Origin: Perkinsus olseni
Lineage: Eukaryota
DNA: 50,648 nucleotides
NCBI GenBank assembly: GCA_013115125.1
Contig: JABANN010000224.1
Span: 1-50,648 of the forward strand
Reading direction: 5' to 3'
Shown here: positions 11,266 through 46,547 of the stretch, piece by piece
How the letters are laid out: each line of letters begins with the position of its first letter
How positions within the stretch are numbered: position 1 is the first letter of the stretch
Made by a program: the position numbers and the translations under genes
Notes under the pieces: model-generated
What the model was told of the DNA's origin: nothing
Databases searched by the model: none
The model's input: the letters and a program-made list of their open reading frames with translations, nothing else

Positions 11266-11991
11266 CTATTTCATTGGGTTGAGAGCTAAGGTCCTCGTTC
11301 CTCCCCCTTGAAGATGCAGGTAGACCCTTTCTGGCGTAGCTGAGAGTACAAAAAAGGAAGGAGTACCTCCCGTCGGCAGGTCCGATCCTGGACAACTTTC
11401 CGCCACACCGCGGATGAAGCTTGCGTAGGTTGCATCAGCGCCAGGTAGAAAATTAATATTGGTTCTCTCGCCGACGATTAGATCACTGAATCGGCGGCCG
11501 TGGGAAGCATGTCTACATTCGAAGTCTAGAAACACGTCTGTAGGAGAGATCGTCAAAATCAATTTGAAACTGTCGTCTCCGTCATAGACGTATGTCCCCG
11601 GGACCAGAGGTAGGGCTCTTCTAGAAAATGTAACCTCTTCCCCTGCGAGTTGAGTCTTGAAAGAGGACTCGTCGTACGGAGACAGAACGGTCAATTCACC
11701 ATCTTGCATCTGGACTTCCGGGAAAGCATTAGTCATCACTCTCTCGAAGCGGCCGAAGTTTGGATATTCAACAGTGTAATCACCAGGTTCTCCTTCGACA
11801 GAATAGCCAATCTTGACCCTGACCGGTTGCTCGCCACGCCCCTCGAACTCCCACGACATAAAGCCATCCGACACAGAAGCTCGCATGTTGAGGGACGACG
11901 TTGACGCCACGTATTCTCCAACGAACTGAGCACTCGTAGTCACCAGAGCTAGAGCGGCGATGGAGAACCAAGTCGCAACGGGTTTTACCAT
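11266..11991 (-). CDS. Intronless secreted protein of the MVKPVATWF family, copy 1 (intact, 241 aa)
   Basis: Hydrophobic signal peptide MVKPVATWFSIAALALVTTSA/Q. Two beta-rich halves each open with G-x-Y (FVGEYV; VPGTYVY). Two conserved Cys in the second half. Five further copies occur in the window. Confidence 0.8.
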   Translation of the reverse strand: MVKPVATWFSIAALALVTTSAQFVGEYVASTSSLNMRASVSDGFMSWEFEGRGEQPVRVKIGYSVEGEPGDYTVEYPNFGRFERVMTNAFPEVQMQDGELTVLSPYDESSFKTQLAGEEVTFSRRALPLVPGTYVYDGDDSFKLILTISPTDVFLDFECRHASHGRRFSDLIVGERTNINFLPGADATYASFIRGVAESCPGSDLPTGGTPSFFVLSATPERVYLHLQGGGTRTLALNPMK

Positions 11992-13522: not shown

Positions 13523-14198
13523 TCAGTTCCAGTTCATTTCCTCGAGAGCCAAGGTTCTCGTTTCTACCCCTTGCAGATGCAGGTAGACTCTTTCCGGCGT
13601 AGCGGAGAATAAATAGAAGGATGGAGTCCCACCCGTCGGCAGGTCAGATCCTGGACAACTTTCCGCCACACCGCGGATGAAGCTTGCGTAGGTTGCATCA
13701 GCGCCTGGTAGAAAATTAATATTGGTTCTCTCGCCGACGATAAAATTGCTGAGAGATCGTCAAAATCAATTTGAAACTGTCGTCTCCGTCATAGACGTAG
13801 GTACCCGGGACCAGAGGTAGGGCTCTTCTGAGAAAGAATACTTCTTCCCCTTCGAGCAGGGTCGTGAAAGCGGTCAAGCCGTACGCAGCGAGAACGGTCA
13901 AGTCACCATTTAGCATCTGGACTTCCGGAAAAGCATTAGTCATCAGTCTCTCGAAGCGGCCGAAGTTTGGATAGTAAACAGTGTAATCACCATCGTCTTT
14001 GAAGACAGGATATCCAATCTCGACCGAGACCGGCTGCTCGCCACGCCCGTCGAACTGCCATACCGGAAGTTCATCCGACACAGAAGCTCGTATGCTGAGG
14101 GACGACGTTGTAGCCACGTAATCTCCAACGAACTGAGCTCTCGTAGTCACCAGAGCTTGAGCGGCGATAATGAACCAGGTCGCGACGGGTTTCACCAT
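13523..14198 (-). pseudogene. Secreted family copy 2, frameshifted
   Basis: 66 nt present in copy 1 (11478-11543) are replaced by a 10-nt filler TAAAATTGCT (13741-13750). The net loss of 56 nt shifts the frame; the C-terminal half is still recognisable in another frame. Confidence 0.8.
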
Positions 14199-17849: not shown

Positions 17850-18525
17850 TTATTTACACTGGAATTTGTTGAGAGCCAAGGTCCTCGTTTTGTGCCCTTG
17901 CAGATGCAGGTAGACTCTATCTTTAGTAGCTGAGAATACATAAAAGGAAGGAGTACCCCCCGTCGGCAGGTCAGATCCTGGACAACTCTCCGCCACATCG
18001 CGGATGAAGCTTGCGTAGTCTGCATTTGCGCCCTTTAAAAACTGAATGTTGGTTCTCTCGCCGTCCTCAAAATCACCGAATCGTTCTCCGCGAGCGGCAT
18101 CTCGAAATCTGATGTTCAGAAAGACGCTTGGAATATTCCCAGTATCCACCTCCAAGGTCACTTGCATGTCACCGTCGTCGAAGAGGTATGTACCCGGTCT
18201 CAGAGGAAGGGCCTTTCTGAGAAAGAATACCTCTTCCCCTTCGAGTAAAGTCTTGAAAAAGATCTCGTCGTACGGAGCCAAATGTTTCAAGTCGTCATCT
18301 CTTATTTGGACGCCCGGAAAAGTTTCAGTGATCAACTTTTTGAAGGGGCCGAAGTCTGAATGATCAACAGAGTAATCACCAGTCGAAGTCTAATTCGACG
18401 GAACCAGCAGACACAGAAGCTCGTATGGAAAAGGACGACGTAGACGCGAAGTATTCTCCAATGAATTGAGCGCTTGCAGTCACCAGAGTGTGGATTATGA
18501 GCCAAGTCGCGACGGTTTTCACCAT
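17850..18525 (-). pseudogene. Secreted family copy 3, frameshifted
   Basis: MVKTVATWL start at 18525. A deletion near 18380 splits the gene into ORFs 18376-18585 and 17850-18335. Confidence 0.75.
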
Positions 18526-19760
18526 TGGGAGAGTAGAGTAGTAGAAAAAAGTAGCTCTTAAAAATGAAGGAGCGCCCACGAGCAAATGAATTGATTCAGG
18601 GGGGTTCGTTATGTGCCTCAGAGAGAGCTGAGAAAAATAGCGGGAAGGATGATATGTGCAACTCGAAGCTTGTAGCCGATGTGACGGAAAGGAAACAATA
18701 ATCTATCCAGTTCGGTCCCTTTCCCGCTACCGAATAATCGATCACGCCGCACTGTCCGGGCTAGCTCGCACGCATAAACTTGGGCGCCACCCTTGCGCAC
18801 TGGTCATAGTAATTGAACGACATAACTACCCTGTCCGATTGAGGCAACTGGAAAGACAATGGCTGATAGTTTGCATACGGGCCGTAAAGATCATAGATCC
18901 CCAACCGCAGCATTTGCTACGCCGACACGCCGTGTCGGACACGGGGGAACAGGACATTTATGGAAAAAGTACATCGGGGGACAACCATGGGTACAACCGG
19001 CGTGACACCGGGGGTGACGCTAGTGAATGGGACATCTGGACCCGAACCTAGGGTCGTAGATCATGCCCCCGCTCGAGGCAATCCCCTATCGCCACGGGCC
19101 CTCCGTCGATGTACTACGGAGTGCACCTCTACCAGTGGCTTCTTGATACTAGTAAGTCTGGCGGGCGACCTCCACCAAGTTCCAGATAGGCTGCGTCCGC
19201 AAGTTTTGCACCCACTGTGACACCTGGTGACGACGTCACTGTCTTCCCGCCTCCATTGTCCCCATCCTGTCTCCTCTGCAACCTACGTCTTTGATAGCAA
19301 TCCCTCAGTTATCGGCTGACAGCACTCGTTTTTCTTAGCGTCTGAGGGGTAGGATACGGCTCAACGGTTCTGAATCGGAGCTATTCCAGGCAGTCCTCGA
19401 GTGAAGCAATCCTGGTCGGATTCGGTCCTTTATCAACAACCTATTGAGTATCATCCAATCGCGTATTTTCAAGACTTTTTACTCAACGAGTCAGCTAATT
19501 TCTCTTTACTTGCGCCTTTGTCGAGTTATCGTTTAACCATGTTTATTATGAGTAAAACCATCAGTTGTTCCGAACGAAATCCACTTTATCGAAGAAGTAC
19601 GTACGAGACCGGGCTTCTATTGGTGGACGCTTATCAGCGCTGTTGGCGTATTTCACGGAGCTTCCCACACTCTCGCATCGTGTTGAGTCGGAGAGGATGT
19701 CGCTTGCTGCTCTGCAACAAGTCCTATGGTCCAGGTCTTTCTCTCCGTTTCCTTTCCCAT

Positions 19761-25459: not shown

Positions 25460-26198
25460 TACTGGATTCTGTCGAGAGCCAAGGTCTTCGTTCGTAGCCC
25501 TTCTAGTTGCAGGTAGACTCTACTTGGCGTAGCTGAGAGTACAAAAAATGAAGGTTTCCCCCCCGTCGGCAGGTCAGATCCTGGACAATTTTCCGCCACG
25601 CCGCGGATGAAGCTTCTGAATCTGAATCTGAAGGGTCTGCATCTCCGCCAGGTAAAAACTGAATGTTGGTAGCTCCGCCGACGGTTAAATCACTAAATCG
25701 TTTACCACGACTTGCATCCGGGCATCTGAAGGTCATAAATACGCTGGCAGGAGTAATCCTCAAGGTCAATCGGAAGCTGTCTCCTTGGTCATAGACATAT
25801 ATACCTCCCCTCAGAGGTAGGCCTTCTCTAAAAAAGATTAGCTCTTCCCCTGCAAGTACAGTCTGGAAGGAGATCAAGCTGTACTGAGCCAGATCGGTCA
25901 AGTCACCGTCCTGCATCTGCACTTCCGGGAAGGCACTAGTGAACAAGCTTTTGAAGAGGCCGAAGTCTGGATAGTCGACAGTGTACTTATCAGAATCTCC
26001 TTCGAGAGGAAATTCAATCTTGATCGAGACCTTTGGCCCGGCACGCCGCTTGAACTCCCATATGAGGGAACCATCCGACACAGAAGCTCGCATCTTGAGG
26101 GTTGACGTAGACGCTGAGTAATCCCCAAGGGGCTGAGCACTCGTGGTCACCAGAGCCAGAGTGGCGATGACGAACCAAGTCGCGGCGGGTTTCACCAT
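25460..26198 (-). pseudogene. Secreted family copy 4, with a late frameshift
   Basis: MVKPAATWF start. A short repetitive insertion (TCTGAA repeats, about 25615-25635) moves the last quarter of the gene out of frame. It could still encode a 231-aa variant. Confidence 0.7.
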
Positions 26199-26943
26199 TG
26201 AGTGGAGTGGCTGTAAGAAAATCAGCTTCTGAAAATGAAAGAGGGCTAAACTTTAGCCCTCTTTCATTTTAGCCCCTTTAGCCGCTAAAGGGCATAGAAA
26301 TTGAATCAAGGGCCCTGATTCAGGGGGGAATCTCTTATGTGCCTCAAAGGAAGCTGAAGGAAATAGCGCAAAAGACCCTATGGATGTAATGTGCAACCCT
26401 AATCGGGTTACTCGACCCTTGTAGACGATGTGCGAAGCAGAGAAAAGAATAGTCTATCCAGTTTAGCCTGTCTTCTGCTCCTCAAAAATCGACCGCGTCT
26501 CACTGTACGGGCTAGCTCGCACGCATAAATTTGAGCGCCACCCCTGCGAACCGGTCATAGCAGTTGAGCAACACAACTGCTCTTCCTGGGTGAGACAACA
26601 GGGAAGACAATCGCAGGTAGTTTGCATACAGGACGCAAAGGTCATACATCCCCAGCCACAGCGTTTACTAGACCCGACACGAGGTAAAAGGACATTTATA
26701 GAGAGAGTATCGGGAGACAATGGTGGGTACATGTTTAGAGCTTCGGTCGGGACACTGGTTGACTCAAGAGCCATGGAATGAAAGAGTAGAAAAGTATATA
26801 GTTAATTAGTCAGTCTTTTATGCCGAGTATCTTGTGGCAGTTTCAACTGTGGCAGTTTCAACAAAGATACACTGAATTGGCGCTTGCCTTTGTGCAACAG
26901 CACAAACACGACGCCCCGAGATATATACATCATCATCATCATC

Positions 26944-29900
26944 TTAAGATTTAGAACTGCATAATAGCAGTAGAGGACTGGTGCAGATACCTGCAGGACC
27001 TCGTGGGAGAATCTCATCAGGTAGTTTTTTGAGCTTGTCCGAAGAGTGCCACGTACCATTCTCTAGTAGTATCCGGTTTCCTTCAACTTCCGAGACGACA
27101 TGAACTTGTCCGAGCCATGGTGGTGAAGCTTTGGGTTGTAGATCTGGAGCACGGACTAGTACTAAGTCGCCCACAGAGATCTCGTAGCTGTGACTGTTGT
27201 GCTTCTGCATGAGACGGAGGACACGAAGACGACAATCCGTCTTGTAGTTGCGCCACGTATCCCACTTAGTAGAAGGCAGTTGGACCACGTTGTTGTTGTC
27301 GAAGGGAGAGGTGTGAGACTCAGTAATCATATCCAGAGGGCATAGACCATTGGCCAGCATGTTGGTGGTGGTATTGATCTCGTAGGCAGCTCGAGAGATA
27401 GACTCACGCCACTTGTCATCATCTACGAAGGGAGTTGTCATGAACATACGACGTAACCTCTGATTCAATAATCGATGTCGAGCTTCTACGTGACCGTTCA
27501 TCCACGAAGCAGACCTCGGCACAAACTGGAAGTCGACGGACACCATAGCTTTGGATGCCACATGAATGGTTGATGCATTATCCGTGCGGATGTTCTGGAT
27601 AGCATGGTTGTACAGTCGATGAGGAAGGTTACAGGCACGTTGGATGTCCACGGAGGTAGGGGCTTTGACAGTAGGGTAGCATAGCAAGATGTTGGTCAGT
27701 TGATCAACCAAGTTGATGGAGTAGAACTTGCCTTGCCTTGTTGCTGGATCAGTTACATAAGGACCGAGAACATCTAGGTTGACAACCTGGAAGGCGAAGT
27801 CAGGGATGTTAACAACATCAGCTGTAGGGTTCTTAGGCCTGTTGTCACCGGGGTTAGTCTTGGTCATCAAACAAGCCATACAGTCACGGGATGCCGTTCT
27901 GGCGATGTCATCAATGTCGATGCCAGTAGTTGCAAAGTAGCTTCTCAGTGTTGTTGTAATCTCTGGAGCACCGCCGTGTCGTAGACTATGGAGATGTTTG
28001 GCACATGACACTAAGAAGTCATGGTCAGCAGTCAGGCGTAGGTTACCGTCATCTGACAGTGGTAGGGACCGATAAACTTGTAGTAGATCAGCAGGAAGTT
28101 GTACAGTATCATACGGTGTAGTAGGTGCAGTTGGTAGAGGCTGTAGTGGGACTTCAATAGGCTCTTCAAGTCTGGTCTTCTTCTGCGGCAGAGATGCATT
28201 GTTGGAGTCGTCATCTCTCTTGCGTACGATTCGGGCAACATGTACTTGTTGAGAATCATCAGTGATGGGTAAAGGTTGCACAGTGTAGCTGTCCAAGGTA
28301 TCACGGGCAGTGACTATGTCGACGTAGAGCTCAGACCGCGTCCCCGCATCAGCTTTGTTGAGCTCGGTAGGAGTGAACTCGACGTCGAAACGTCTCGACT
28401 TCATCAAGTAGTGAATGAGGTCGATGATACGTTGTAGTAGAACGGACTGTTTGCCGTTAGAAGCGACCTTGGCCGACGACAGGGCAGCATTCGCAGTCTT
28501 GTTGTCTCCTCGCAAGAGGATGGACTTGAACTGCTGTCGAGTGTCGACCTCGTAGTTGACCAGAATGCAGAGCGCATTGTACGCTGTGGTGAGCTCACGT
28601 ACATTAATATGAAGGGACCGTTCTTGCCGAGACCAGGGCCATTGATGTCTGAATATTATGCAGCCGTTCTGCTCAGCAACCATAGCACCCATCTGGTCGG
28701 AAGCATCGAACCATATAGTTACAGGGATAGAAGGATCTATATGTCGGCGAAGTGGTAGGGGTGGAGTTGACCTGACCAGCTCTTGCCATCGGACTAGTAG
28801 TTGCAGTGTGGAGTCGTCGATGACTGTCTTCTTCCAAAGAGCTTTATGTACTGCCCTAGCTCGAGATACCAGCGCAGTCAAGGCGTTCTTACATGGAAGA
28901 ATATGCCATCCGAAAAGATCCCATGCTTGTGATAGTTGACCAAGGAAGCTTAGTGCAGAGCTGTAGGTGGTGGGCTTCGTAAGGTCATAGTTAGTGCACT
29001 TCTCGTACTTGGCAGTAGGGAATATGATAGAGTCGCCATTGTCGACTATCATAGATCCCAGGATGGTCGTGCCGTTGGAAGCAGGGCCGTGTAGGGGCTC
29101 AGCAACTAAGATCATGTTGTACTCAGCAAAGTGGTTTATGACTGTTTGAAGATCATGATTGGGGTCAGTGTCGGTGAAGTAAAGAACCAAGACATCATCC
29201 ATGTAGCTGACGGCAACGTGTTCAAAGCCAGGGAGCTTGTGTAGTTCTCGCAGTACATGATTGACACACCATTCCAGCACCTTGGCATTAATAGAGCTGC
29301 CGTCCAACATATAGAGGTAGGTCAGAGTAGAGCCACGAACATGGACTTGTGACAGAAGCTGGGCGTTTTTTCCCAACCTGATGGAGCGGTAGCTGTCCTT
29401 GACGTCAAGTAGAGATGCTGTTTTCGCACTCCTGTACTTATTGAGGATCCGTGAGATCTTAGATTGACAGTCACGGATAGGATAATGGCGTTGGACTTGC
29501 CTCAGTAACTGGTTGCTGCAGATTGATGGTACCACGGGGCGGCATCGCTTTCGACCCTCCACAGGATACCAAGGAGAGGCGTAGTTGTTGACAGAGTGAG
29601 CAGGAGTGGCGACGACCTTGTTGGTGTTGAGAAGATCGTCGAACCTAGCCTCGGCCTCACGACGAACACGACCGTCAGATTTGAGGAGACGGTAGTGAAC
29701 CTTGGTAGCTTCAGGTGGTTGGTTTTGTAGTGCTAGCTGTAGCAGTTCATTGCTGTAGTCGACCATGAACTGCTTGTTGTTGTCCTCGTCTTTGATGGTT
29801 AGTATCCTACACCATTGATTGGAGTAGACGTGTTGGTCGATGACAAAACCATCATCAAGCGGTGGGAATGTAGGAGGCGTTGTTAAGGCTTCTTTAACAT

Positions 29901-31839
29901 TGTAGTCGACGTCACCCTTACGCTTGATCTTCACGGCATTGTTAGGGGCTGTTGTGGATGCCGGCGGAAGCAACTCACAGGGTGGAGCAACTGATGCCGT
30001 TGGTAGTGGTGTAGTAGAAGTCGTTGGGATTGGAGAGTGTGAGGTCTCAGATGGTGAGGCTGCAGAGTTCGATCTGGGCAGTTCACATGTTACCGGAGAT
30101 AGCGATGAAGGTACGCTACCAGTAGAGATCTGGGGAGGTACAGATCTGAAGAATAGAGATGCCAGTGCATCTTCACCATCCTTGAATCGTAGTAGTAGTC
30201 CTTGTCGGTCAAACCGAAGCGCATCCATTCCAAGTAGGGCATCGGAATGGATGAGCGGAGTCTGTAGCACCGCAGGACGCCATGGTAGAATGTGTGTGGC
30301 GTTACCATCGTAAACTGGTAGGTCTACTTGAAGGCAGTAGTCGCAGGAGAAAGACTTAGCTTCAGTAGCACTGTCGAATGTAGCGTGAAACGACAGAAGT
30401 TGAGCGCCCTCGACAGTTTTGACGATGAAATCAGCCAGCTTCTTTGAGATGAGAGACATGGTAGACCCAGTATCAGGAACAATCGTAAAGCCTTCACATG
30501 CTGGACAATTGAGGATTGTCACAGAGTCGGCATTAGGCGTTGTTGTTGGGGTAGTCGGTGCTGTCATCCTTGACACTTCAGTAGTGTGCTTGTAGGGGCA
30601 GGAGTCACCGTTCTTACACGATTGGCGAGCAAGGTAGGCCATGCATATCCTCTTCTCCTTGCAGAGTTTGATGACTTCGGGATCTTCGATCCGTTGTAGC
30701 CTTGTGGTAGTTGGATTGGTAGACTGGATAGGGGCTACCGAGGATGTTGATGTTGTTGAGTTTGACGTTGTTGTTGAGGTAGTCGTAGCGGTTGGAGTGG
30801 TAATAGCAGTTGTCGGAGGGGGGTTGGCTTCTTGGTAGTACTGTAATGCCATCGCAAGCTCGGTGACATCACGGATATTGGAGTATTGCTGATTGCAGAC
30901 TTTTCGCAGATGGGGAGTTAGGCCTCTCTTGAAGTAGTCGAGAACTTGACTGGCATGGAGATATAGGCCAACCGAGTTCGCCATGGAGATGGAGCTCTCT
31001 AGGGTATCCAAGTAGTCATGCACCGATACACTTTTTGATGCCATTTTGATAGCCGATAGATGCCTGGTTATCCTGTCATGGTCGTTGGTGGTAGCAAAGT
31101 GAGCTTGTAGGAACTCTAGAGCCGTCGTGAACATCAGCTCGTAGTTAGACATGAAGGCCTCAGGAGGAAGCGCGCGCTCTAGATGATCCATGAGCTTCAG
31201 TTTAGGACCTTGGCCTAAGCAGCGGCATAGATAGAGATAACAACCATGAGCACTGAGGGCATTCTGTCGGCATTCTTGTCTCGCAACCATGATGACATAG
31301 TTAATAGCACGCCCATCCTTGAAGCCGAGAAACTCACGACCGTCAGGTAGGCGTAGATTGGAGATGGAGGTCAGCAGTTGTGTGTGACTGGTTGTGGGGC
31401 TCGTCGTCGTATGGGTAGTGCTGGCTATAGTGGTAGTAGTCGGCTTGATTCCCCAAAAACTGAGATTGGTAATCTTGTCATTGAGAGTGTCAGCATGAGT
31501 GAGAGGTAGAGTTGAAGTAACAGTGGATTTAGTGGATGAAGTGAATGTTGAACTAGGGATAGAAGTAGTAGATGTCCGTGCCAAAGAAACCGACTGTGCC
31601 TGGCGTAGTTGGGAGCGCAGGTTTTGATAGAGTTGTCGGTATTTGACCTTAGTGGGAATGTCGACCTCTTGTTGGGTCATGATAGTTCCGAGCTCCGAAC
31701 GCTCGAGGTAGAGCAGGCAGCTCGCAGTGGGTAGTTGTAGAAGTTGAAGTAGTTCAGTAGTGGTTGAGTCATCAGTGAGTCCGTGGTTCTCCGCCATGTT
31801 TAGAGCTTCGGTCGGGACACTGGTTGACTCAAGAGCCAT
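26944..31839 (-). CDS. Single gag-pol polyprotein (1631 aa): gag, CCCH finger, aspartic protease, RT, RNase H, DDE integrase
   Basis: CCCH C-x8-C-x5-C-x3-H at 30586-30645. Protease VPDTGSTMS at 30466-30474. RT LDVKDSYRSI and SYMDD (29194-29205). RNase H WFDAS...HINVREL...GDNKT...NKAD. Integrase H-x3-H...CMAC, VNLDVLGP, IRTDN, NGHVE, and a C-terminal VGDLVLVR...WLG. Confidence 0.95.
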   Translation of the reverse strand: MALESTSVPTEALNMAENHGLTDDSTTTELLQLLQLPTASCLLYLERSELGTIMTQQEVDIPTKVKYRQLYQNLRSQLRQAQSVSLARTSTTSIPSSTFTSSTKSTVTSTLPLTHADTLNDKITNLSFWGIKPTTTTIASTTHTTTSPTTSHTQLLTSISNLRLPDGREFLGFKDGRAINYVIMVARQECRQNALSAHGCYLYLCRCLGQGPKLKLMDHLERALPPEAFMSNYELMFTTALEFLQAHFATTNDHDRITRHLSAIKMASKSVSVHDYLDTLESSISMANSVGLYLHASQVLDYFKRGLTPHLRKVCNQQYSNIRDVTELAMALQYYQEANPPPTTAITTPTATTTSTTTSNSTTSTSSVAPIQSTNPTTTRLQRIEDPEVIKLCKEKRICMAYLARQSCKNGDSCPYKHTTEVSRMTAPTTPTTTPNADSVTILNCPACEGFTIVPDTGSTMSLISKKLADFIVKTVEGAQLLSFHATFDSATEAKSFSCDYCLQVDLPVYDGNATHILPWRPAVLQTPLIHSDALLGMDALRFDRQGLLLRFKDGEDALASLFFRSVPPQISTGSVPSSLSPVTCELPRSNSAASPSETSHSPIPTTSTTPLPTASVAPPCELLPPASTTAPNNAVKIKRKGDVDYNVKEALTTPPTFPPLDDGFVIDQHVYSNQWCRILTIKDEDNNKQFMVDYSNELLQLALQNQPPEATKVHYRLLKSDGRVRREAEARFDDLLNTNKVVATPAHSVNNYASPWYPVEGRKRCRPVVPSICSNQLLRQVQRHYPIRDCQSKISRILNKYRSAKTASLLDVKDSYRSIRLGKNAQLLSQVHVRGSTLTYLYMLDGSSINAKVLEWCVNHVLRELHKLPGFEHVAVSYMDDVLVLYFTDTDPNHDLQTVINHFAEYNMILVAEPLHGPASNGTTILGSMIVDNGDSIIFPTAKYEKCTNYDLTKPTTYSSALSFLGQLSQAWDLFGWHILPCKNALTALVSRARAVHKALWKKTVIDDSTLQLLVRWQELVRSTPPLPLRRHIDPSIPVTIWFDASDQMGAMVAEQNGCIIFRHQWPWSRQERSLHINVRELTTAYNALCILVNYEVDTRQQFKSILLRGDNKTANAALSSAKVASNGKQSVLLQRIIDLIHYLMKSRRFDVEFTPTELNKADAGTRSELYVDIVTARDTLDSYTVQPLPITDDSQQVHVARIVRKRDDDSNNASLPQKKTRLEEPIEVPLQPLPTAPTTPYDTVQLPADLLQVYRSLPLSDDGNLRLTADHDFLVSCAKHLHSLRHGGAPEITTTLRSYFATTGIDIDDIARTASRDCMACLMTKTNPGDNRPKNPTADVVNIPDFAFQVVNLDVLGPYVTDPATRQGKFYSINLVDQLTNILLCYPTVKAPTSVDIQRACNLPHRLYNHAIQNIRTDNASTIHVASKAMVSVDFQFVPRSASWMNGHVEARHRLLNQRLRRMFMTTPFVDDDKWRESISRAAYEINTTTNMLANGLCPLDMITESHTSPFDNNNVVQLPSTKWDTWRNYKTDCRLRVLRLMQKHNSHSYEISVGDLVLVRAPDLQPKASPPWLGQVHVVSEVEGNRILLENGTWHSSDKLKKLPDEILPRGPAGICTSPLLLLCSSKS
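31779..31796 (-). promoter_or_regulatory. Putative primer-binding site
   Basis: TGGCGGAGAACCACGGAC directly follows the CA end of the 5' LTR. It is complementary to a tRNA-like 3' end ...GTCCGTGGTTCTCCG-CCA. The cognate tRNA was not identified. Confidence 0.65.
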
Positions 31840-33767: not shown

Positions 33768-34493
33768 TCACTCGACTCTGTCAAGAGACAAGATCCTCGC
33801 TCCCTCGTACGCTTCTACTCGCAGGTAGACTCTATCCGATGTTGCTGAAAATACAAAGAAGGCAGGAGTACCCTCCGTCGGCAGGTCAGATCCTGGACAA
33901 CTTTCCGCCACATGGCGGATGAAGCTTGCGTAGCCTCCAGTTCCGCCACGTAAAATCTGAAGATTGGATGACTCGCTGACGATTAAATCACTGAAGCGCT
34001 GCTCGTGAACGGCATCTGTACATCTGAAGGTCATAAGTACGCTGTCAGTAATCGTCAAAGTCAAATGGAAACTATCTCCTTGGTCATAGCCGTATATACC
34101 CGGCCTCAAAGGCAGGGCTTTTCTGAAAAAATACAATGCTCTTCCTGTAAGTGAAGTCTTGAAGAAGAGCTCGTTGTACGGAGCCAGATTGGTCAAGTCA
34201 CCATCCTGCATCTCCACTTCCGGGAAGGCAGTAGTGACCAATGTCTTGAAGCGGCCGAAGTCTGCATAGTTAACAGTGTAATTACCAGACTTCCCAAGGA
34301 GAGGGAACTCAATCGATATTGAGAGCTTTGGCCCACTACGCCGCTCGATCTCCCATAAGAGGGAACCATCCGTCACAGAAGCTCGTACGTTGAGGGTCTT
34401 CATAGTCGCCAAGTATCCTCCGATGAACTGAGCACTCGTAGTCACCAGAACTAGCGTGGCGATGATGAACCAAGTCGCGACGGGTTTCACCAT
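33768..34493 (-). CDS. Secreted family copy 5 (intact, 241 aa from MVKPVATWF)
   Basis: Signal peptide and colinearity with copy 1 over the full length; ATG at 34493. Confidence 0.8.
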   Translation of the reverse strand: MVKPVATWFIIATLVLVTTSAQFIGGYLATMKTLNVRASVTDGSLLWEIERRSGPKLSISIEFPLLGKSGNYTVNYADFGRFKTLVTTAFPEVEMQDGDLTNLAPYNELFFKTSLTGRALYFFRKALPLRPGIYGYDQGDSFHLTLTITDSVLMTFRCTDAVHEQRFSDLIVSESSNLQILRGGTGGYASFIRHVAESCPGSDLPTEGTPAFFVFSATSDRVYLRVEAYEGARILSLDRVE

Positions 34494-36639: not shown

Positions 36640-37195
36640 AACTGAATATTGGTCCATTCGGAACTGCATATCGGGAAGGTTGCAGCGGCGACGATCAACT
36701 CACTGAATCGCTGAGCGTGGGTGGCATCTGCACACCTGGCATCTGCATACGCTCGTTGTAGTCGTCACGATCGTCAAGAATGTACTCGAGACCAGTGCTA
36801 CGGCTCTTCTGAAAAAAAATATCTTCTTCTCCGAGTAGAGTCCTGAGAAGGTTATTTTATGCGGAGCCAGATCGATCAAGACAGTGACTTGAAGCCAACA
36901 TCTTGCATCTGGGCTTCCGGAGAAGCACTCGTGACCAATATCCTAGAGCGGTCGGAGTCTGGATAGGCAACAGTGTAATTGCCAGAATCTCCTGTGAGAG
37001 GGAAGTCAATGAGACTTTTAGCCCGACGCTTCGGTCGAACTCCCACGGTAGGGAACCATCCGACGCTGACGCTCGCATGTTGAGAGATGACGTAGGGGTT
37101 GATAATCAACCGTTGATTGACCCCAAGAACTTTTTACTTGCAGTCACTAGAGCTAGAGTGGCGATGAGGAAGCAAGTCTCGACGAGTTTCACCTT
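36640..37195 (-). pseudogene. Secreted family copy 6, heavily degraded
   Basis: Start ATG changed to AAG (KVKLVETCFLIATLALVTAS). Fragments MRASASDGSL and FPLTGDSGNYTVAYPD lie in different frames. Confidence 0.75.
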
Positions 37196-37251
37196 CGAGA
37201 GAGTGGAGTGGCTGCATGAAAATTAGCTCCTTGAAATGGAGGAGTGCTGAA

Positions 37252-37716
37252 TTCAATTCAAACTTTATTGCCTGGGCGTTACAAGCTCAAATCTTATCGC
37301 CCATCACACGACCCGCGCAAGCGGATCCCGATATGGTTAGACCCAACCATAGAGCTGTAAAACAACATAGGTTAATCAATCTTTCATCATCAGCTCGGAG
37401 GCTCTTTAGAGGAACTTCATCACAACTCCGTCGTGCAGCCAGTCAGGACGAGGAGGGAGGCATGCTACACTGGGCAGCCTACTAGGCATGAGGTAGAAAG
37501 AAAGTGAAAAGAGGATCAAGTAGGCCCAGGACCAACAACTGCGATTGCGGAAACCCAGATGAGTAGATGGTGAGAATTTGTGTAGTAAAGGAGGGCCCAA
37601 CCAATACCGAGTCACCAGCAAGGGGGACGTGTGGGTATGGCAGGTTCGATCTCTACTTCGTACTGGGAAACCCCGGCCACCCTCACGCGACGTTGACGCG
37701 TAGAGACCTGTGAGGG
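37252..37716 (-). mobile_element. 465-bp non-autonomous non-LTR retroposon (SINE/SIDE-like) with a 5' ribozyme
   Basis: 11-bp direct repeat GGAGTGCTGAA at 37241-37251 and 37717-37727; the paralogous promoter at about 34541 has GGAGTGCTG once, with no insert. The 3' end on the - strand reads AATAAA-GT-TTGAATTGAA. Three stem-loops lie near the 3' end and an HDV-like fold at the 5' end. Confidence 0.85.
37648..37716 (-). ncRNA. HDV-like self-cleaving ribozyme (predicted)
   Basis: - strand parse: P1 CCCUCAC, A, P2 GGUCUCUAC, P3 GCG, L3 UCAACGU, P3' CGC, P1' GUGAGGG, P1.1' UG, P4 GCCGGG-GUUU-CCCAGU, J4/2 A-CGAA, P2' GUAGAGAUC. This is the full nested double pseudoknot. The C75-equivalent is at 37660. 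Confidence 0.85.
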
Positions 37717-39393
37717 GGAGTGCTGAAGAGCAAGGGGGAGGATTCTGTTATGTGCGTGTTACTCATTATGCGCCGATCGTCTTGTGCATGCGTGCATAGC
37801 TTGTTCTCCTCGAGAGAGCGAGCTTAGACTGAACAAGCGGAGCCCGTCGCTTCGCTCCGGAGTCGCTTCGCTCCAATGGCAGCGGCGGCGCTCTCAGCAG
37901 AAATGTTGTGCAGTTAAGCGTAAGTGCAGGAAAGTGTGAATTCTTCACGCGCGATGTAGTGAATGAGTAGAGTTCTTATGAGAGATGAAGAGAGGGAATG
38001 TGAACGTACCGGCTTAATGAGGAAGCTGTGGAGTTGATTGAGACGTATGTCAATTACGGGAAGATATAGAGATGGAACTGCGACAAACTTCTCGAATGTG
38101 AGTATTTCACGCACGATTATGTTGAGCTCAAATAGAAGAATTAATAGAAGTATTAATTAGTACAAACCTTGGACAATCGGAGCCTTCGATGGCCGATGCA
38201 GTTTCGGGCGCGCGCGAAAAAGCGCAAGATATGCAAGAGTGACAAGAATATAGGCTTTGCTCCATTCCCATAGACCCCGGGCATGAGCACCGAAACCCAC
38301 AGAATAATTCCCGGGGGTGGGGGGAGTTATAGAATAGACTCTCAAAACCGACCACCCTGTTCTTGTTTACGGAGCTTCAACTTGTCCATCAGAGTGGACT
38401 CTATTGAACGCGCCACAGTCTCCCCCAGCTCAGGAGGTGCGAGATGGTTCGCCGCCGACGACCCAGCTCAGAAGGGAACCTTCCGATGAATCGTCGGACG
38501 CGCGTGCCCGCGTACGAGATCGCAAGGTCATGCGTAGCAACTTTTTCCCGATTGATACGAGCTGCCACGGGACGCGTGTTCAGGAGTACTGTCACATAAT
38601 CCAAGGCAGTTCGCGAACACTCAGAGGCCCTCGCCTCAATCGGGAGTCCCGATTGGGTATCAGGAAAAGTGCGCGGGCCTTCTTCATTCTCGAGTCGTGG
38701 ATTCTCTCCACCTTTCCTTGCAACCAAGGGTATCGAGTATTCGGCTAGACAACCTGGAAAATCAGCGACGACATCGCATCTCGGAACTTGTCACTTCGAA
38801 AGTAACTTGACGTATCGGTATATGCCTCTCAGAGGAACCCTTACGAGTGATCATGTCGCCTCGTAGTCACCGCTTCGTCTGTCGTTAGTTGGAGTGGGCG
38901 CCGCCCACTGGGCGGTCGAGCCTCCTAAGGTTGTCAAGGCTGAGCACGGGGTGTATGACGGGTCTGAGAGATGAACGCTCCCATGATGCTTCGTTCAGTT
39001 GAGTGCGTGTATGCTACTTCTCATAATTTTGATAGGATCTCTCTCCATCATTGTCCTTCTGATTCTATTTATCAGCTCAGAATCAGCCCGATGGCAATGG
39101 ACTTCTCTCGAGTGACGATTCTTGAGTTTATCATCGACCCGAGCGGCCAAGCCTAGGATGTCCCATCCGGGACCACCGGTCAACGACTTGTACTCCAGTC
39201 GGTACGGCCTGTTGATGGGGCATTCGCCGGTTGTGACAGCGCTAGCTTTATGGTCATCTAGCATTGTGTGTACTTGTATCCCTAACGGGCTTCCTGGCTC
39301 TGTTGTGGTCGGGTAAGTGTAGCCTAGCCGATGCTTATTATTGAGGTTGTTGTCGTAGGGTGTGGTGGATGTCGTAGGGTGTGGTTGGTCATC

Positions 39394-43691: not shown

Positions 43692-46547
43692 ATGGCGAAT
43701 CCTGCCGAGGATACAGGCGGTGGTGACCCGAGCTCAGAGCAAGCTGCTCGACCTTCCCCGAGCTCCGACCCTGTGACTATACTGACTGCCAAGGGCACTG
43801 AACGGTCCGACCGCGCCATAGCTCTTTCTTCCCTGCTGATCTCCATCAACAGGGGCCGGATGTCTCTTCTAGAGCTCGTCCAGCAGCTGCAGTCCAAGCT
43901 GGTGAGTGAAGACTCTGGTGTGCGGCGGCTGGCGGTGGAGCTCCTGTCCGACGTCATCGAGAGATTGCCGAAACTACCACTTGGCACAATGCAGGTGAAG
44001 ACGGTTGGTCGGTTTTTCGTGGACAAGCTTGAAGACTGGGTCTGCATCGAGTTCGCCTTGAAGGGGCTCATCGGCCTTCTCACTAATCATGGCCGTAAGC
44101 TTGCGACCGCTAAACTGACGGTAGAGGAGATCAAGAAAGAAGAAGACACCGATGACTACATCGGTATGCTGTTGACAGGGGATGAGCGATTCGAGGGACA
44201 AAACGGAGCTCCGCCTCCCGCCTTCCACTGCGAGATTTTCCTTCACCTCATTATTAAGCACGTATTGCTCTACGTCAACGCGCCCTCTCAAAGCCAGCCT
44301 GTTCGGTATGCTGTACTCAAGCTGTTGGAGCTGGTCATAGGGCAGCCTGAGCTCCGAGAGGAGGTCATCAACTCGACATCGGTGGCGAAGGTCCTGGCTC
44401 AGGGCGTAGTCATGGAGTGTGAGGACGAGAGGGACCCAAGGAACCTTCTGTTGGCCTTCGAGCTTCAACGAGAGGCCATGTGCTTCTACGCAGAGCATTT
44501 GAAGGGTCTTCAGGCGAACCATAATAATGATGAAGAATATCCCGATGGTGGGTTCGAACCTGCGACCGACCTCGGCAATTTCGCGCAGATCGTCTTCGAG
44601 GCTGCTACAGTGTATTTTCCCGTCAAGTTTCAGCAGCGGGACACTGACGTGGCGGACATCTCTCAGGAGAAGCTCAGTCGGGCCCTTTACAATGTGCTGT
44701 TCGAGAGCGAGGAGGCCATGGTCCGTCTAGCGATGCCCTCCCTTTTGGATATCCTGGCCAACCCCGAGGATGAGCTCAGCATGCTCACTGCGCAGCGGTA
44801 CATCAGTGAGGCTATCGTCACTAGTCCCTACAAGGACCTCATTGCCAAGGAGTACTCCCGAAGGACTTTTTCGGTTTGCCTCGATCAAGTTACCAAGGAG
44901 ACCGCGCCCCTGAAGTTCCTGCTCTGCGAACTCTGGCTGGCGTTTGTACGAGAGACGGGGGCTAGGAACTGCAAGGATGCAGTAGAATCGCTTCTCTTCA
45001 TGTTCGCAAAGTCCGGTGAATCCGACGATGAGCCCAAGGCCGCTGGAGTGCAGCAACTCCTCCTGGCCAGCGGCCGGGGTAGCTTCGAGTTCTACGATGA
45101 GATTACAAGCCGCGCTATCGTAACACTCTTGAGCTCACCGCAGGCCGTGGAAGAGGACAAGCATGGTGTAGTTGACTTTTGCATGAAGTTCCTCAGTGAA
45201 GGCAGCATCTGTGACGAGGGCCTTGCTGAGCAGGTGGCTGAATGCCTACTCAAGCTGCCCGATAAGGATATCCACCTGGCGTTGGCTGCAGTAGTTCCAG
45301 CCTGTAGTGCCGACTCGCTCGTCGTGAGCAAGGCTATGAAGCTTGCCATCAGCCGTCGTTGGACGAGTGTTGTGAAGAAGGCCTACCCTCGACATCCTAA
45401 GATCACGCTGGAAGAAGTCGTCCCAGCACTGCAGCAACGAGCTGATCAGTCAAGTGACATGTCCTGTGCGATCGTGGCACAGATTTTTGCCGACCATCCG
45501 GCCGAAGCCATATCCCTGCTGAGCACGGTTGGCGTGGCTGATATTGCTAGGTCGAGGGAATGGCCCGAAGATGCTCTCAGTTTTCTAGTGGACAACCTAC
45601 CTGAGGTGGCGACCTGGCCGTGGCCTCTTATTGTAGCCAGTCCTATTAATGAAGGCTCTTTGGCCTCCCTAGCATGCAGGCTGGCAGACGCCAATCAGCC
45701 CATGTGCCAGAAGGTGGTATCTTTGGTTGAGTCTAATCCTCGAAGGTTTGCCGGTCTGCTCGCTGGCCTTCCTCAAGAGGAGCTTCCTGAGTGCCGGGTG
45801 TCGAACTGGTCTACTCTGTTCAAATCGGTGGTGATTGATCCCCCAGCGGCCCTGAAGGTTCTCGAGGTATGCCCTGACGATGCATTTGATGCGTGCTTGG
45901 CATCAGCCTTAGTCAAGGATGCTGACCCCATCATCTGGGCCACGGTGATGAAGGTCGGGATCGAGCGTGACCGGTCGAGGACGATAGAGCTAGGCAAAAG
46001 CTCGATGGCAATAGCGGGACTCAAGAGACTCTTACACAGCAACACAGTTGAGTTGGACGAGGCCGAAAGGAAAGCAATCGTCTCCGGTTTGTACGACCCG
46101 TCGGCAGATCGGGGTGTCGCCATGTGCTTGCTCAGCGCACTGGACACCCCAGATCTCGAGACATATGGTGAAGAGCCCAGGCGGTCGATGCTGATGGGCC
46201 TGAAGGAAGGTGCAGGCGAGGCCTTCGTCTTTGCTTGCAAGTTGTTCCTTCGACTACTCTCGAGACCCCTTCTCCGAGCGGACTCCCAGAGCGTCATCCC
46301 GGCCCTCTGCGACAAGCTCGAGTCCGACGACAGCCGACCGCTCACCGCAATATCTGCCTGCCAGTGTCTCTATAAGATTGGTAAAATGAGCGACTTAGCG
46401 GAGCTCATTCCCAAGCAGTACTACCAGAGAGTTTTCCACGCATTGAAGCAGCCGTTGGCCCACCATAAGATGGTCGTGAGACGGCAGGCCACCATAACGT
46501 ACGGTGTCTGGATGTGCGCCCAAGTGGACGGGTTCTGCGAACGATGA
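43692..46547 (+). CDS. MMS19: MMS19/MET18 homolog (cytosolic Fe-S assembly targeting complex), 951 aa, intronless
   Basis: SLLELVQQLQSKLVSEDSGVR, ERDPRNLLLAF, FE...YFPVKF, and C-terminal HHKMVVRRQA...W match MMS19 N- and C-terminal HEAT-repeat motifs. Confidence 0.85.
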   Translation: MANPAEDTGGGDPSSEQAARPSPSSDPVTILTAKGTERSDRAIALSSLLISINRGRMSLLELVQQLQSKLVSEDSGVRRLAVELLSDVIERLPKLPLGTMQVKTVGRFFVDKLEDWVCIEFALKGLIGLLTNHGRKLATAKLTVEEIKKEEDTDDYIGMLLTGDERFEGQNGAPPPAFHCEIFLHLIIKHVLLYVNAPSQSQPVRYAVLKLLELVIGQPELREEVINSTSVAKVLAQGVVMECEDERDPRNLLLAFELQREAMCFYAEHLKGLQANHNNDEEYPDGGFEPATDLGNFAQIVFEAATVYFPVKFQQRDTDVADISQEKLSRALYNVLFESEEAMVRLAMPSLLDILANPEDELSMLTAQRYISEAIVTSPYKDLIAKEYSRRTFSVCLDQVTKETAPLKFLLCELWLAFVRETGARNCKDAVESLLFMFAKSGESDDEPKAAGVQQLLLASGRGSFEFYDEITSRAIVTLLSSPQAVEEDKHGVVDFCMKFLSEGSICDEGLAEQVAECLLKLPDKDIHLALAAVVPACSADSLVVSKAMKLAISRRWTSVVKKAYPRHPKITLEEVVPALQQRADQSSDMSCAIVAQIFADHPAEAISLLSTVGVADIARSREWPEDALSFLVDNLPEVATWPWPLIVASPINEGSLASLACRLADANQPMCQKVVSLVESNPRRFAGLLAGLPQEELPECRVSNWSTLFKSVVIDPPAALKVLEVCPDDAFDACLASALVKDADPIIWATVMKVGIERDRSRTIELGKSSMAIAGLKRLLHSNTVELDEAERKAIVSGLYDPSADRGVAMCLLSALDTPDLETYGEEPRRSMLMGLKEGAGEAFVFACKLFLRLLSRPLLRADSQSVIPALCDKLESDDSRPLTAISACQCLYKIGKMSDLAELIPKQYYQRVFHALKQPLAHHKMVVRRQATITYGVWMCAQVDGFCER

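Follow-up and report, generated by a model that had tools for sequence, protein, structure and literature searches.

A short retroposon family of Perkinsus olseni with LINE-like ends and a predicted HDV-like ribozyme at its 5' end

We confirm that a 465-bp repeat on the minus strand of contig JABANN010000224.1 of Perkinsus olseni (assembly GCA_013115125.1; the window below is the whole stretch analyzed, positions 1 to 50,648) is a genuine dispersed short retroposon. Its copies are dispersed and flanked by target duplications, its ends are held in common with LINEs that encode an AP endonuclease (APE) and a reverse transcriptase (RT), and both its head and its tail covary. The element is very probably a bipartite, non-autonomous member of a LINE lineage with an Ingi/L1Tc-like anatomy, whose RNA would be cut by a ribozyme and mobilized by a LINE.

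The element in the window and its copies

The insertion (family A) has the following parts:
37252..37716, minus strand: short non-autonomous retroposon of family A, 465 bp
37717..37727: target-site duplication on the element's 5' side, 11 bp, a single motif in paralogous genes
37241..37251: target-site duplication on the element's 3' side, 11 bp, whose first 2 nt continue the tail repeat
37252..37269, minus strand: AATAAA and (GAATT)n tail

An earlier reading made from the sequence alone (the sequence-only reading) had proposed an 11-bp duplication, and GGAGTGCTGAA is indeed found at 37241-37251 and 37717-37727 with 465 bp in between. By itself this repeat is weak evidence, because 14 direct-repeat families of 10-21 nt lie within 1.4 kb. 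Homology between copies breaks at the duplication borders of the window element, and the empty site is seen in paralogous secreted-protein genes of the window, which have a single GGAGTGCTGAA motif in the same context. The element starts on the minus strand with CCCTCAC at 37716, and its 3' end is as had been described: the minus strand reads AATAAA-G-T-(TTGAA)2 to 37252, running into the target. The tail repeat unit across family-A copies is GAATT, except in copy C2621, which has poly(A) instead.

With the whole element as query, at least 29 matches were found on 26 contigs of the 39.9-Mb assembly (22 contigs with family A and four with a sister family), as the proposal of a multi-copy, dispersed, non-autonomous mobile element predicts. 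Six family-A copies are complete and 87-96% alike; divergence among them is 2-3% in the first 116 nt and the tail, and 6-8% in the middle. The youngest family-A copies are under-assembled, because three heads and three tails of A type stop at contig ends (the assembly consists of 3353 contigs). Among four sequencing runs examined out of 24 listed, contigs of an RNA-library run (X6) cover the element at depth 3-15, which by itself does not establish transcription from the element.

Twelve elements from three families were tabulated for duplications: nine have one of 10-12 bp (0-2 mismatches); in one element it is 8 bp long, and in two no clear one can be recognized. The tail repeat extends 1-5 nt into the target in eight of the nine well-defined elements (a raw count), and no target sequence preference was evident by eye among the 12 insertion sites. 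No terminal inverted repeats were found, in keeping with a non-LTR retroposon, and some copies (C1, C3297 and C3165) are 5'-truncated. The copies bear the usual marks of target-primed reverse transcription, as had been suggested: duplications of variable sequence, a repeat tail and 5' truncations.

Partner LINEs and the origin of the short families

The sequence-only reading took the element for an internally deleted LINE with an unseen autonomous partner. A partner lineage does exist and is represented by two LINEs; the parent LINE of family A itself was not found. An RT scan located LINE C487 (G000:C487), in which the RT lies downstream of a head match. It is 4144 bp long, with an exact 11-bp duplication and a (GAGTC)n tail; behind a short leader at the 5' end, a single frame interrupted by frameshifts encodes APE, RT, an RNase H-like region and a Cys/His motif. 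LINE C715, the closest other lineage to C487 in the genome (35-42% protein identity), is 4450 bp long and has the same layout, an exact 11-bp duplication and a (GCGTT)n tail. Both LINEs have a single ORF with APE and RT and no ORF1; both are broken by stops or frameshifts, and their frames were read in pieces. The RNase H region scores weakly (Pfam RNase_H at E 0.006, below the cut-off), with 28 of 29 PDB matches being RNase H (best E only 0.0015) and the motifs visible. A protein search with part of C487 gave 29 distant matches, the best 21-29% identical and carrying no clade names, and a search with the C-terminal part of C715 gave nothing. Judged by its layout, the LINE anatomy appears to fit Ingi best.

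Both LINEs carry the element's head fold and 3' stem, so that RT-encoding relatives sharing both ends are at hand. The similarity differs among the three short-element families: family A is ∼80% identical to C487 in its initial 109-116 nt, with 56 of 70 bases of the head matching, and 65% identical in the tail (47 of 72), and matches C715 at 45 of 70 head bases and 42 of 72 tail bases; family B (C3165, C286) is 88% identical to C487 over 75 nt at the 5' end and 92% over 91 nt at the 3' end; and family C (C582, C10, C2771, C1438 and others) is up to 92% identical to C715 at the 5' end and 87% at the 3' end. RT matches downstream of the C286 head were discarded as an unrelated insertion (this RT does not match the C487 protein). 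Two features are pertinent to the relationship of family A with these LINEs:
37601..37716, minus strand: 5' 116 nt shared with LINE C487 (∼80%) and with the short elements of family B
37376..37489, minus strand: 37-codon mini-frame after a pyrimidine tract, no LINE homologue

It is possible, though rather unlikely, that family A is a direct and fairly recent internal deletion of a GAATT-tailed LINE of its own (unassembled or recently lost), with the mini-frame joining the start of the ORF to its end. A third pair of short element and LINE would be expected, because families B and C are each paired with a LINE that has the same tail repeat and ends 83-92% identical to theirs; the fragmented assembly, with its six A-type ends at contig ends, could conceal one. 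The peptide does read at 37489-37376 as had been given, its frame is open in five of the six complete copies (the window copy has a stop) with no gap columns in the six, and both LINE frames likewise open with an ATG behind a pyrimidine tract. But the 37-codon peptide matches short copies only (eight out of eight), and with eight synonymous and 20 non-synonymous changes the dN/dS ratio of the mini-frame is 0.79, on which we rejected it as a selected protein; it may be an old ORF remnant. The middle of family A (element bases 117-385) has no significant match to LINE C487 or C715 and shows no colinearity with either up to a junction (the parent may be unassembled). It does match the middle of the family B short elements, with a score of 46 against 23.7 ± 4.0 for shuffles (0 of 300 shuffles reached it). 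Thus the partner lineage is real, yet family A is no simple deletion of either LINE, because its middle resembles that of B and neither LINE; the idea of a LINE ORF with start and end fused fares no better.

Searches for the missing parent point the same way. No multi-kb element with family-A ends was found when the DNA of each end was searched separately, nor was a LINE with such ends found with the head and tail patterns, the mini-peptide or the LINE proteins as queries, or among the 122 matches of the RT scan and the 18 of the APE scan (the DNA inspected comprised 30 of the 122 RT matches, 20 further regions and the APE loci). When 14 APE loci and a set of other RT loci were scanned with a head model (R1), it picked up no additional head. 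In addition, contigs of the young subfamily in Logan run X4 (depth 465) adjoin short-element middles (depth 489), with the caution that depth is not copy number. We therefore favor, over a recent deletion, old internal deletions as the probable source of the short families, which would since have evolved as short elements, because the A and B middles resemble each other and not the LINEs.

Other remnants were encountered. The 5'-truncated LINE fragments C571 and C2996 (L110, L112) belong to the C487 and C715 lineages and are ∼71-73% identical. More copies of the C487 lineage exist than are assembled, because C2553 and C636 are 95% identical pieces of it. At C2702:56760-56841 (L127) a family-C tail is followed by a 5'-clipped head, and in an RNA-library contig (run X6, record 20) a clipped head comes directly after a tail of B type; elements may insert beside each other's tails.

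Folds at the two ends of the element

Three hairpins had been proposed ahead of the tail:
37332..37351, minus strand: hairpin 1, family A only
37310..37327, minus strand: hairpin 2, core CCGC-N4-GCGG also in LINE C487
37273..37303, minus strand: distal 3' stem with AA bulge, common to both LINEs, covarying

All three can be formed at these positions, but the minimum-energy structure gives solely the middle one as drawn; folding of the last 124 nt has a z-score of -2.5. The distal stem is common to the three families and both LINEs and covaries: among 17 sequences (tail alignment A4, without C1604 and without C1560, which has an internal tail duplication) 95% of cells are paired, three of 11 pairs are changed on both sides, and the covariation score was reached by 0 of 500 shuffles. 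Recognition of a 3' stem by the RT is a notion based on stringent LINE/SINE pairs, and by analogy the distal stem is likely to be the RT recognition signal.

The sequence-only reading missed an HDV-like fold of the first 69 nt, with the following predicted parts:
37648..37716, minus strand: predicted HDV-like ribozyme, element bases 1-69
37716-37710/37686-37680, minus strand: P1 of predicted ribozyme, CCCUCAC/GUGAGGG
37708-37700/37656-37648, minus strand: P2 of predicted ribozyme, GGUCUCUAC/GUAGAGAUC
37699-37697/37689-37687, minus strand: P3 of predicted ribozyme, GCG/CGC
37696-37690, minus strand: L3 of predicted ribozyme, UCAACGU
37679-37678, minus strand: 3' strand of P1.1 of predicted ribozyme, CA/UG
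37677-37662, minus strand: P4 of predicted ribozyme, one mismatch in the window copy
37660, minus strand: candidate catalytic C57, J4/2 ACGAA

These bases fit a nested double pseudoknot (P1, P2, P3, P1.1 and P4) that begins at the element's first base, and by this model they fold like an HDV-like self-cutting RNA. Usually base 1 of HDV-like ribozymes is a G; the element has a C paired with a G. L1Tc also begins with a C, and the L3 loop of the element is presumably similar to that of Pr77. The defining helices and the catalytic C of HDV-like ribozymes are given in passages of PMC3185411 and PMC13635239; the likeness, judged by sections of PMC13635239 and PMC10879173, lies in the nested double pseudoknot, the C in J4/2 and the two-pair P1.1.

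The covariation of the head was assessed on 14 heads (12 distinct). For P1, P3 and P1.1 (the only helices counted, as head alignment A1 misaligns C715 in P2 and P4) 96.5% of cells are paired, a figure that overcounts events because the covariation rests on about three lineages, and four of 12 pairs are changed on both sides; the covariation score was reached by 0 of 500 shuffles, and control structures slid along the alignment are 37-65% paired. For the A and B heads alone, three of 27 pairs are changed on both sides, which 61 of 500 shuffles reach. Alignment A2, in which the C354 row has the wrong orientation, did not enter the counts. When P2, P3 and P4 were modeled on the A and B heads, without C715, the model found the C715 head at E 4e-8 with 18 of 18 pairs standard, and P1, which is not in the model, also pairs there (seven of seven). 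Among 21 distinct heads, position 5 of P2 is CG in nine, UA in nine and AU in two, and the J4/2 C (C57) is kept in 18 when the best register is chosen. The duplication adjoins base 1 of P1, the predicted cut site, in eight of the nine well-defined elements; the ninth (C3165) is 5'-truncated.

Pattern searches gave 25 sites for the core pattern and one for the reversed control. A looser descriptor without P4 was passed by 18 of 30 head loci and by one site in 3.0 Mb of random sequence, its sole match in the window being at 37699; a strict descriptor was passed by seven of 15 heads, with the window copy failing on its P4 mismatch. The head pattern and the descriptors were written after the sequences had been seen, and heads that do not fit them may have been overlooked. 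The head folds no better than shuffles (z from -0.2 to -1.8), pseudoknots being outside the folding model, and Rfam gives no match for it (none to E = 1 in 36800-38200).

In four family-C heads (C582, C1814, C2771 and C2570; L121, L125, L129 and L137) ∼5 nt stand in place of P4, and P2 shows a compensatory change. We regard them as candidates for minimal HDV-like ribozymes of a eukaryotic retroposon; minimal forms without P4 are placed in metagenomes and phages in the relevant parts of PMC13635239 and PMC10879173, whereas here they are predicted in a retroposon subfamily.

The head might instead be mainly an internal DNA promoter (as Pr77 also is), with an inherited HDV fold that has lost its cutting activity in family A. 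Exact +1 starts would equally follow from such a promoter, conservation runs to base 116, beyond the fold, and C2621 (L006), a family-A copy with a perfect 12-bp duplication and the poly(A) tail, has its candidate catalytic C changed (C57 to U in the RNA, T in the DNA), a type of change that inactivates HDV-like ribozymes according to passages of PMC10879173 and PMC13635239. However, between families P1, P2 and P3 have changed on both sides in ways that keep the pairing and not the sequence, the change in C2621 may postdate its insertion, and the two roles are not exclusive; we find this explanation improbable. An ordinary Pol III SINE, with a head derived from a small RNA and a LINE-derived tail, is very improbable indeed: the length is SINE-like and a B-box-like GATCGAACC lies at element position 66 (the absence of A and B boxes claimed earlier thus stands for the A box and falls for the B box, going by the box consensus sequences), but there is no A box, no tRNA by ARAGORN and no Rfam match, and the element has internal T4 runs. 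The head has its homologue in the 5' end of the LINE itself, and the B-box-like motif, which overlaps P2, differs in the youngest subfamily as well as in both LINEs.

Comparison with known retroposons and genomic setting

Under the ribozyme-headed, LINE-mobilized cycle that we prefer, transcription of the element would either proceed by read-through or begin at a promoter in its own head. The HDV-like ribozyme would cut just before base 1, so that the released RNA has a precise 5' end and the new copy retains the ribozyme. A LINE protein (of C487/C715 type, or of an unassembled closer relative) would bind the 3' stem, its AP endonuclease would nick the DNA, and a few bases of the tail repeat would pair with the target; reverse transcription would then leave an 11-12-bp duplication.

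The comparison with NARTc and RIME made in the sequence-only reading is apt, as there too a short element and an APE-RT LINE have ends in common. Like NARTc/L1Tc, RIME/ingi and SIDER, as treated in parts of PMC3185411, PMC4035085 and PMC3383444 (the NARTc/L1Tc arrangement in the latter two), the element is short and non-coding with LINE ends: the trypanosomatid elements have the first ∼77 nt and the 3' end in common with a single-ORF APE-RT-RNase H LINE, their HDV-like fold (P1, P2, P4, a 3-bp P3 and a 1-2-bp P1.1) lies at base 1 as predicted here, and L1Tc duplications are 11-12 bp long (PMC3383444). There are differences, however: the host is a perkinsid alveolate, the tails are pentanucleotide repeats (GAATT, GAGTC and GCGTT) rather than poly(A), the covarying stem is longer than the 21-30 nt that L1Tc and NARTc share at the 3' end, and the end identity of family A to its nearest LINE is 80%/65%, compared with 97%/77% for NARTc.

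According to Kojima 2018 (PMC5786205), no clades other than RTE, Ingi, Vingi and R2 are known to contain bipartite elements, and 5' ribozymes occur in Ingi. Such non-autonomous LINEs (PMC5786205; R2 SIDEs, PMC3414825) likewise have the 5' and 3' ends of a LINE without its ORF; they belong to clades linked to 5' self-cleaving ribozymes, and parts are exchanged among short elements, as here (PMC5786205). What is new is the host lineage, the occurrence of three families alongside two LINEs cognate to them, and the sister heads that lack P4; the mechanism is a known one. R2 has no APE. The partners here have an APE and an RNase H-like domain and dispersed insertion sites, and Vingi is without RNase H in the portion of PMC13708176 concerned. 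Our literature search found no report of a Perkinsus ribozyme, of Ingi or of such non-LTR elements in Perkinsus (an earlier description, for example in Repbase, is possible), and no relevant report of HDV-like ribozymes in dinoflagellates or alveolates. Pairs of ribozyme-headed LINEs and short elements would extend to alveolates, and the three tail types, two cognate LINEs and variants (P4-less, C57U) make a natural set for studying LINE template choice and ribozyme needs.

The element lies beside a dead gene copy, as had been noted: the start codon is lost, ∼56 nt beyond the element's tail, and the element has the same sense as this copy, upstream of the lost start. Were the ribozyme active at this site, it would cut any transcript reading through. 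A wider picture, which we consider doubtful as a whole, is that perkinsids harbor trypanosome-like ribozyme-headed LINEs together with short families that live freely, survive the loss of their parents and exchange tails (one subfamily having an HDV fold reduced to the P4-less form), and that sense insertions upstream of genes cut transcripts, silencing or remodeling copies of secreted-protein genes. If true, such transcript cutting would have a counterpart in SIDER2 of Leishmania, to which this trans-splicing lineage is unrelated.

The dead copy belongs to a tandem family of signal-peptide-like proteins of ∼240 aa on the minus strand, several copies of which look broken:
11266-11991, 13716-14198, ∼17850-18585, 25503-26198, 33768-34493 and ∼36780-37200, minus strand: copies of the tandem secreted-protein family

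The family has no Pfam match, and the Atlas clusters of a paralogue of the neighbor gene are all eukaryotic, Perkinsozoa being the commonest. At 37757-37828, 30 bp from the element, there is a 72-nt fragment of a high-copy repeat with very high contig depth (40 scored out of 96 candidates are 83-100% alike); elsewhere it forms the sharp start of a longer dispersed element. The window also contains a 1631-aa gag-pol-like ORF of an LTR retrotransposon (26944-31839, minus strand, with an RT match), the start of whose frame is repeated at 26463-26774, a single-exon MMS19-like gene (43692-46547, plus strand) and a tRNA-Trp(CCA) gene (50568-50639, minus strand).
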